A stretch of 64,000 bases of DNA from an uncultured Clostridium sp. (GTDB lineage: Bacteria > Bacillota > Clostridia > TANB77 > CAG-508): positions 75,379-139,378 of the forward strand of contig CAMBEE010000003.1 of assembly GCA_945865665.1 (NCBI GenBank). Direction: 5' to 3'. Made by a program: the position numbers and the translations under genes. A model generated the notes under the pieces. It was not told where the DNA came from. It did no database searches and saw only the letters and a list, made by a program, of their open reading frames with translations. Below are positions 4,296 through 4,700 of this stretch, piece after piece; the first letter of the stretch is position 1; the number at the start of each line of letters is the position of its first letter.

Positions 4296-4700
4296 TTAAA
4301 TTAGTGAGTAAGGTAGGTCTTTAGGGTTATATGTATTAGAAATTGTTAACATATTCATTCAGTTTAAAAAGAAAATCTATTATTAAAAATTGAGCCTCTT
4401 TCACTCAGAAAAAATTTCATATGTATATATTTTTGGATTTTTGAGTATAAATGAAGCAATATTAGAATTTCTTAATAAATTAATGGAAAGAGTTCATAAA
4501 ATGGAAGGGTGCCATTAATTTATTTAGGAATTCTTATTATTGCATAATAAAATTGAAAAAATCAAAAAATATATACATATGAAATTTTTCCGTGAACATT
4601 CCTCAATTTTTAATATAATATTTTCTATTTTTCACTTCAATCAATTGTTAACAATTTCTAATACATATAACCCTAAAGACCTACCTTGCTCACCAACATT
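4296..4700. repeat. About 405-bp imperfect palindrome with roughly 140-bp arms. Outer ~47 bp match about 96% as inverted repeats, inner arm regions about 75%. MITE-like or long-hairpin element.
   Basis: 4298-4344 TTAGTGAGTAAGGTAGGTCTTTAGGGTTATATGTATTAGAAATTGTTAACA is the reverse complement of 4641-4688 with one mismatch. Nested inverted matches AAAATTTCATATGTATATATTTTT (4400s) versus AAAAATATATACATATGAAATTTT (4570s). Confidence 0.7.

Follow-up and report, generated by a model that had tools for sequence, protein, structure and literature searches.

A palindrome of about 420 bp, lying between a giant surface-protein gene and a two-gene operon in the chromosome of an uncultured gut Clostridium, carries a 294-bp core that stands in opposite orientations in closely related genomes. 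We consider the element to be probably, though by no means certainly, an inverton-like DNA switch adjoining the operon, which encodes a cadherin-like membrane protein and a REC-GGDEF protein. Comparison of assembled sequences shows that the core is inverted between genomes; a dedicated recombinase and a regulatory effect of flipping are what we infer beyond this. The DNA analysed (the window) is a stretch of 64,000 nucleotides, to which all positions refer unless otherwise stated; it is chromosomal, has a GC content of 26-30%, and contains a dcw cluster as well as a prophage extending from 43161 to its end.

Anatomy of the palindrome

The palindrome occupies positions 4287-4710, with arms of about 205 nt each and an unpaired centre of only about 25 nt (4487-4511), in place of the arms of about 140 bp and the centre of about 125 bp described in the first-pass annotation. 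A repeat finder returned outer arms of 65 nt (4287-4351 and 4646-4710) that are 89% complementary, together with three inner arm pairs sharing with them a single centre near 4499. Global alignment of 4270-4730 to its own reverse complement gave pairing from about 4291 to about 4706, near perfect over the outer 55 nt or so and about 75% in the inner arms. The inverted repeat exists far beyond chance by two measures: the window's 64 kb contain just two exact copies of the 40-mer GGTAGG...TGTTAACA, one at 4312-4351 (+) and the other at 4646-4685 (-), and none of 100 shuffles gave any match; and single-stranded DNA of 4280-4715 is predicted to fold into one hairpin of -110 kcal/mol, as compared with -33.5 +/- 3.3 kcal/mol for shuffled sequences (z = -23.6). 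The right arm of the near-perfect outer repeat originally reported lies at 4646-4696, not at 4641-4688; the single mismatch is true of the 47-nt version, the quoted 51-nt string having two. The "TTAAA-like flanks" turned out to be inverted copies belonging to the palindrome itself, and no direct repeats.

On reading of its sequence the element is non-coding, being small, bounded by terminal inverted repeats and free of any ORF with a ribosome-binding site. A peptide gene within it was considered and discarded, the only candidates being 11-aa ORFs lacking ribosome-binding sites and ORFs with TTG starts. Searches of Rfam, with the whole window at the gathering threshold and with 4150-4850 at a permissive one, returned only sub-threshold generic hairpins and no meaningful family. 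The features of the element and its surroundings are collected in Table 1.

Table 1. Features of the palindrome and of the adjoining genes (window coordinates).
Feature	Position	Strand	Remarks
Giant DUF11-repeat surface protein gene, 3' part	6..4241	+	Truncated by window start; C-terminal hydrophobic anchor
Hairpin and T-run, likely surface-gene terminator	4253..4287	+	From sequence reading and alignments; kept in L012, the nearest palindrome-free relative
Left inverted repeat (IR-L)	4287..4351		Inner 40 nt (4312-4351) identical to IR-R; fixed in both orientations
IR-L inner end	4344-4351		Self-palindromic TGTTAACA
AATTGTTAACA, 11-bp direct repeat	4341..4351 and 4643..4653	+ and +	From repeat finder; end points of precise core deletion
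Invertible core, 294 bp	4352..4645		Quasi-palindrome; arms 4352-4486 and 4512-4645, about 75% complementary
Perfect 25-nt sub-palindrome inside core	4410-4434 / 4565-4589
Promoter-like TTGAGT-16-TAGAAT	4441..4468	+	In the other arm; -35 is TTAAGT in most inverted-orientation haplotypes
Promoter-like TTCACG-17-TATATT	4596..4568	-	Would face operon when core inverted
Promoter-like GTGAAC-16-TATAAT	4592..4619	+	In one arm only; outward, toward operon in window's orientation; score 7.3
Promoter-like TTGAAG-17-TATATT	4612..4640	-	Inward; would face operon when core inverted; score 9.6
Right inverted repeat (IR-R)	4646..4710		Inner-end TGTTAACA at 4646-4653; outer half a variation hotspot
Operon's own promoter, TTTACT-17-TGATATAAT (TGA TATAAT)	4742..4770	+	Outside palindrome, 32 bp downstream
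Cadherin-like membrane protein, 311 aa	4797..5732	+	One N-terminal TM helix; cadherin-like beta-sandwich
REC-GGDEF protein, 308 aa	5750..6676	+	Receiver domain and GGDEF domain, motif GGDDF
One-arm remnant of second quasi-palindrome	6689..6823		Just downstream of the operon and its GGDEF gene, about 2 kb from the first; homologous to the first's core

Two orientations of the core

An exact scan for a 22-mer of the repeat, with one genome per species, found only two loci, both in gut metagenome-assembled genomes (MAGs) from the Hadza labelled "uncultured Clostridia bacterium". Both proved to be the locus of the window, with the same flanking genes, terminator and repeats, and with the DNA between the TGTTAACA ends reverse-complemented. 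Further contigs were gathered through homologues of the 311-aa protein, the exact GGDEF protein and one downstream gene, the exact 311-aa sequence encoded in the window not being on record; BLAST comparison with flank, repeat and core sequences then served to assign each locus to a form, and 23 public contigs of the same locus were compared. A full-length core lies in the window's orientation in three of the 23 (the window itself, L033 and L040) and is inverted in 14 (L001, L002, L004, L006, L031, L032, L035-L039, L041, L057 and L065). Once re-oriented, the cores are 98-100% identical, and the closest contigs of inverted orientation, L032 and L038, show just 6-8 differences from the window over 3,200 flanking bases. 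The repeats themselves are fixed in place, and divergence begins exactly inward of TGTTAACA on both sides. The suggestion that this palindrome undergoes DNA inversion, made initially from the window alone, is thus supported by the occurrence of the core (4352-4645) in both orientations among closely related genomes.

Mis-orientation by assemblers is an unlikely source of this pattern, both because the window's orientation is common to three independent assemblies and because the assembler k-mers, judging from contig and MAG names, were 77-141 or otherwise longer than the perfect repeat of about 43 nt. In two further independent assemblies, L003 and L005, the contig begins no more than 1 nt from the midpoint of TGTT/AACA at IR-R, an indirect hint of mixed forms of the core within one sample. 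A contig initially taken as a third case (L048) was set aside, its positions 1-34 beginning with an Illumina adapter joined to the outer right repeat, an assembly contaminant.

The two orientations also dispose of the static palindromic terminator that had been named as the contrary outcome. A terminator or a structural cruciform would be a natural reading of a very stable predicted hairpin just after a gene, and we reject it as extremely improbable: no terminator-like site was found in 4100-4900, the stem being AT-rich where a G+C-rich stem followed by a T-run would be expected, and the upstream gene has a hairpin and T-run of its own (4253-4287), which persists in L012, although a simple terminator scan did not flag it.

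How the core is turned is a separate matter. The window, L033 and L040 constitute one tight clade and the phylogeny requires only about two inversions, so fast switching finds no support in it; mapping of crossovers from polymorphisms in the repeats yielded no informative sequence pair. The main and serious rival to a programmed switch is unprogrammed recombination between the long repeats. Under this account, which we hold to be rather unlikely, the palindrome would be a neutral or selfish insertion, possibly a MITE-like relic, whose core inverts from time to time by RecA-dependent recombination or template switching and is lost by slippage, with neither a dedicated recombinase nor a regulatory role. 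Two inversions or so suffice to explain the sampled lineages, and 40-55 nt of perfect repeat identity is enough for general recombination. Indeed, the repeats are far longer than those of typical invertons, which are 10-20 nt (PMC5903667), so general homologous recombination could flip the core, and this counts against a switch. On the other hand, the core is full-length in 17 of the 23 contigs, and the breakage of two assemblies precisely at the inner edge of the repeat, suggesting mixed forms, is less readily reconciled with rare and unprogrammed events.

Deleted and collapsed derivatives

The remaining contigs carry altered cores. Three (L007-L009) have the window's orientation with a central deletion of 141 bp, bounded on sequence reading by GAAAAAAT repeats, and a mutated left core (TGTTCACA). 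From three others (L034, L042 and L043) the core is precisely absent, the repeats being fused over a single TGTTAACA into a perfect palindrome of about 110 bp with the junction GAAATTGTTAACAATTTC in L034 and in L042/L043; precise loss of the core has thus recurred, in two lineages. The collapsed form is the exact product expected from deletion between the AATTGTTAACA-type direct repeats, which measure 11 bp, or 14 bp in the lineage of L031 and the collapsed L034. The same outcome would be expected of a recombinase working on the symmetric core site, and the two routes are indistinguishable here.

Precise excision by replication slippage is a familiar property of inverted-repeat transposons of the Tn10/Tn5 type. 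The core here is likewise lost exactly between short direct repeats bordering a hairpin-forming segment, with the difference that the direct repeats form the inner, palindromic termini of the inverted repeats. The 141-bp deletion, the loss of the core between 11-14-bp direct repeats and the "palindrome-perfecting" substitutions described below are typical instabilities of palindromes, and as such they speak for unprogrammed flipping.

The empty forms invite another explanation, in which an ancestral perfect palindrome of about 110 bp receives a palindromic transposable core of 286 bp; this would insert at TGTTAACA in either orientation, duplicating it, and would excise precisely. The core does lie between direct repeats of TGTTAACA or AATTGTTAACA, it has imperfect terminal inverted repeats of its own, precisely empty forms occur in two lineages, and a second site carries a homologous palindrome. 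Such a nested mobile element is nevertheless improbable. Similarity to the second copy is confined to some 150 nt at the centre (about 68% identity), and that copy has neither the core's ends nor TGTTAACA flanks; no more copies occur in the 64 kb or in related loci, and no transposase was found. The presence of the full form at the same site in all major lineages renders loss more parsimonious than repeated gain, and the 14-bp direct repeat of the L031/L034 lineage favours slippage.

Diversity and micro-evolution

Diversity was expressed as the mean pairwise difference among 16 full-length sequences with cores re-oriented. The core (1.5%) is no more variable than the neighbouring genes (1.65% in the surface-protein gene, 1.3% in the GGDEF gene and 4.2% in the cadherin-like gene) and less so than the adjacent intergenic flanks (2.2%), while the paralogous palindrome beyond the operon is decaying. 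The retention of a core as little diverged as its neighbouring genes, alongside a paralogue in decay, argues against a neutral palindrome turned without a program.

The two repeats differ from one another in this respect: IR-R (7.2%) is about five times as variable as IR-L (1.4%), with haplotype blocks in its outer half even where the flanks of contigs are otherwise identical. Some substitutions are matched in both repeat arms, as with GGTGGGGC in L031, L034 and L065 and TTCAGGG in L042/L043, and several variants of the core raise the complementarity of its arms (e.g. 4470 T>C and 4564 A>C). Matched and complementarity-raising changes of these kinds point to gene conversion or template switching between the arms.

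The cadherin-like gene is hypervariable, with up to 10-25 differences per 100 bp from L006 as against 0-5 in neighbouring genes. Within this gene L041 passes from an L006-like to a window-like haplotype near 5480, indicating a recombination mosaic. In weighing the switch we have counted the hypervariability of the downstream membrane protein in its favour, as what would be expected of a surface-exposed target.

Gene context, promoters and recombinases

The gene context initially described is correct: the DUF11 surface protein is encoded upstream of the palindrome, and the genes for the cadherin-like membrane protein and the REC-GGDEF protein follow it downstream. The surface protein matches Pfam DUF11 (E=1.8e-26) and has homologues of 1,196-1,902 aa in the related contigs. 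In the 308-aa REC-GGDEF protein, GGDDF replaces GG(D/E)EF and Pfam covers only the first 60% or so of the GGDEF domain model; the usual phospho-acceptor position of the receiver domain is unclear. Judged by its sequence, this protein may not be an active cyclase.

A position-weight scan gave the top score of the region, 9.9, to the operon's own promoter (4742..4770), which is conserved in relatives without the palindrome. Expression of the operon does not, therefore, need the switch; the position of this promoter beyond the element weighs against a programmed device, and by the same token for unprogrammed flipping. The core itself contains promoter-like sites on both strands that are specific to one arm or the other, at scores that are common in this AT-rich genome. 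The outward-facing site at 4592..4619 could conceivably serve as an invertible promoter: the corresponding stretch of the other arm has a spacer of 14 nt and a weaker -10. Sites scoring as high occur about 79 times per 30 kb of one strand, so that the score is no strong evidence for it. An attempt to assign ON and OFF states by promoter scanning was abandoned, the quasi-palindrome yielding promoter-like sites both ways.

No recombinase gene was found within 10 kb on either side of the element, as examined in the 10-kb flanks of ten contigs. The sole recombinase of the window, searched with Pfam over 55 of its 58 ORFs of at least 100 aa, is the prophage integrase at 43161-44291, 39 kb away. The lack of a recombinase nearby counts against a programmed switch and is in keeping with flipping by general recombination, although it is not unusual for invertons, whose known invertases can work from another part of the genome (PMC5903667). 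By-eye comparison of the repeat with dif/Xer, hix and transcription-factor boxes revealed no convincing likeness. The prophage (43161-64000) has its integrase adjoining rpsF-ssb, followed by an S24 repressor-like protein, RecT, RusA, a portal protein and a Mu-F-like protein, and a tRNA gene (57519-57590) lies within it.

Origin of the insertion and copy number

Sister lineages with 67-74% protein identity have the same gene order, but their first two genes are separated by a mere 99-150 bp that contain no palindrome. The order in these lineages is surface protein, cadherin-like gene, REC-GGDEF gene and a small ORF, followed in most contigs by amidase and deacetylase genes; two of the three sister lineages have an extra membrane-protein gene ahead of REC-GGDEF. 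In L012 a recognisable terminator hairpin nearly abuts the conserved promoter, GTTTAC-17-TGTTATAAT. These empty sister sites imply that the ancestor of the clade with 84-100% identity acquired the palindrome, between a terminator and a promoter that were already present.

Two other features of the surrounding genes were noted in the course of these comparisons. Two overlapping ORFs (7657-8007, 116 aa, and 7976-8431, 151 aa) share the polysaccharide deacetylase between them, each with half of the Pfam domain; the split is kept in nearly all related contigs and is thus no sequencing error of the window. An extra gene for a 433-aa AAA_14/DUF4143 ATPase lies between the amidase and deacetylase genes of L038/L063 (about 5154-6455 in L038 coordinates), in this one contig only, and in neither the window nor the other contigs.

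An empty orthologous site in sister lineages, in conjunction with small size, terminal inverted repeats and lack of coding capacity, is also what an active multi-copy MITE would leave. The pentanucleotide AATTG occurs at 4287-4291, where it overlaps the palindrome, and again at 4715-4719, and the reconstructed empty site, TTAATTGTAA, matches L012; the two observations are compatible with a target-site duplication, but a 5-bp repeat is not significant in DNA of 27% GC. The copy number is that of a single locus. No further copies of the repeat or core occur in the 64-kb window; beyond the two related genomes found with the 22-nt repeat core there was one additional match in a metagenome collection; three exact patterns of the repeat and core had no match in viral contigs; and sensitive blastn of the whole element against plasmid and phage collections returned none. 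We therefore reject the multi-copy MITE as highly improbable. Of the MITE reading offered at first, what survives is the insertion relative to sister lineages, by which a mobile origin of the palindromic core is possible, and what falls is the expectation of multiple copies, the repeat being confined to this locus in two species-representative genomes.

Palindromic miniature insertion elements such as the Correia elements of Neisseria are small, non-coding and intergenic, and may carry promoter-like sequences. The present element resembles them in being likewise small, non-coding, palindromic, intergenic and missing from the orthologous site of relatives. It differs in being single-copy but for one diverged paralogue, in having no convincing target-site duplication, and in that its core inverts, a behaviour not known from MITEs.

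An unrelated palindromic family, built on GAACCAATGGGGACGTTC, is present elsewhere in the window as eight intergenic copies in two clusters (21159-21329 and 28934-29121), among them a perfect inverted repeat of 66 nt. One cluster lies between the gene for pyruvate formate-lyase and that for its activase, the other between PBP and MurE genes, and none of the fetched loci contains the family.

A second palindrome beyond the operon

The paralogue just referred to is a second quasi-palindrome, complete in L037 and L039 (about 3975-4260 in L037) and reduced elsewhere: the window and the majority of contigs keep the left arm only, and L001 (5023-5088), L003, L049 and L007 the right arm only. Its likeness to the first is modest, 68% identity over about 150-170 nt of the centre, but well above chance, the local alignment score being 53 where dinucleotide shuffles give 18 +/- 2.6, and it lacks the ends of the first core and the flanking TGTTAACA. 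A four-arm profile (HMM) detected nothing beyond the element and this one diverged paralogue in the window and in the loci of distant relatives. Three short contigs, L052-L054, begin inside the second palindrome.

The two palindromes thus bracket the two-gene operon. The decay of the downstream paralogue to single arms, lineage by lineage, is consistent with unprogrammed events.

Discussion

The findings are most easily reconciled with an inverton-like switch, whose operation may be envisaged as follows. A palindromic insertion of about 420 bp entered the clade between the surface-gene terminator and the pre-existing promoter of the operon. Its 294-bp core, between inverted repeats of 52-65 bp, would be turned by recombination within the repeats, with the crossover most likely at or near the common inner 40 nt that end in self-palindromic TGTTAACA. 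A site-specific recombinase encoded elsewhere would carry out the flipping, which may be frequent within populations. The arms of the core differ at about one quarter of positions, and consequently each flip swaps the arm, with its promoter-like sites, that faces the operon for the one that faces the 3' end of the surface gene. Given a fixed promoter downstream of it, such a switch can only add transcription, interfere with it, or drive antisense transcripts in the direction of the surface-protein gene; flipping would alter expression of the operon, and the likely effect is to add or remove transcription atop a constitutive promoter.

A bolder extension, which we regard as doubtful, is that the element represents a self-contained and transferable "plug-in" switch. 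The palindromic cassette would have placed an invertible, two-faced promoter upstream of a functional one, and the symmetry of TGTTAACA would let a single enzyme either invert or excise the core, giving three heritable states (A, B and empty). On this view the homologous palindrome across the operon would hint at an ability of such cassettes to bracket and capture operons.

Returning to the inverton-like switch as such, its setting is a recognized one. A genome-wide survey of invertons found signalling and chemotaxis genes to be their commonest neighbours in Clostridia, and a surface protein together with a c-di-GMP-type protein is a classic inverton context (PMC5903667), which argues against flipping devoid of function. 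The closest parallels are the C. difficile switches Cdi2/pdcB, Cdi3/pdcC and Cdi6/cmrRST (PMC9286219, PMC5903667, PMC8844915), where a short intergenic segment between inverted repeats is likewise found in both orientations beside a gene for a c-di-GMP-domain protein or response regulator, and where the recombinase is likewise not encoded adjacent to the switch. At pdcB an invertible promoter is combined with a second, fixed promoter (PMC9286219), the latter lying upstream of the switch, whereas in the present locus it lies downstream. Other differences are that the pdcB repeats are 19 bp, as against 52-65 bp here, that pdcB is a phosphodiesterase whereas the neighbour here is a REC-GGDEF protein with the motif GGDDF, and that the core is itself quasi-palindromic. 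The likeness to the C. difficile systems is one of architecture and context, known here from sequence alone.

Comparable segments have been catalogued in gut bacteria by PhaseFinder and DeepInverton, and more than 75% of the gut invertons so catalogued are shorter than 300 bases (PMC11602134, PMC11892184). The present locus resembles these in its layout, a core of about 300 bp framed by inverted repeats, and in lying ahead of surface-related genes in a bacterium of the human gut. It differs in its unusually long repeats and palindromic interior, and in the level of evidence, the catalogues recording both orientations from reads within samples whereas the comparison here is between assemblies. 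Overall, the element belongs to a known kind, the inverton-like, and is unusual in its anatomy. The repeats measure 52-65 bp and the core is a quasi-palindrome; the whole lies upstream of a promoter that was there before it, natural derivatives occur in deleted and collapsed form, and a paralogue is decaying across the operon.

Invertible switches are a form of bet-hedging by which gut bacteria vary surface structures and signalling, and among Clostridia they are known mainly from C. difficile. The locus described here would extend them to a clade of uncultured, low-GC gut Clostridia represented in Hadza, Nepali and other cohorts, in which the deleted and collapsed forms provide natural "locked" variants, ready-made controls for switch function. 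If the flipping should instead prove to be unprogrammed, the locus would serve as a clear natural illustration of what befalls long palindromes in bacterial chromosomes, which invert, correct themselves and collapse.
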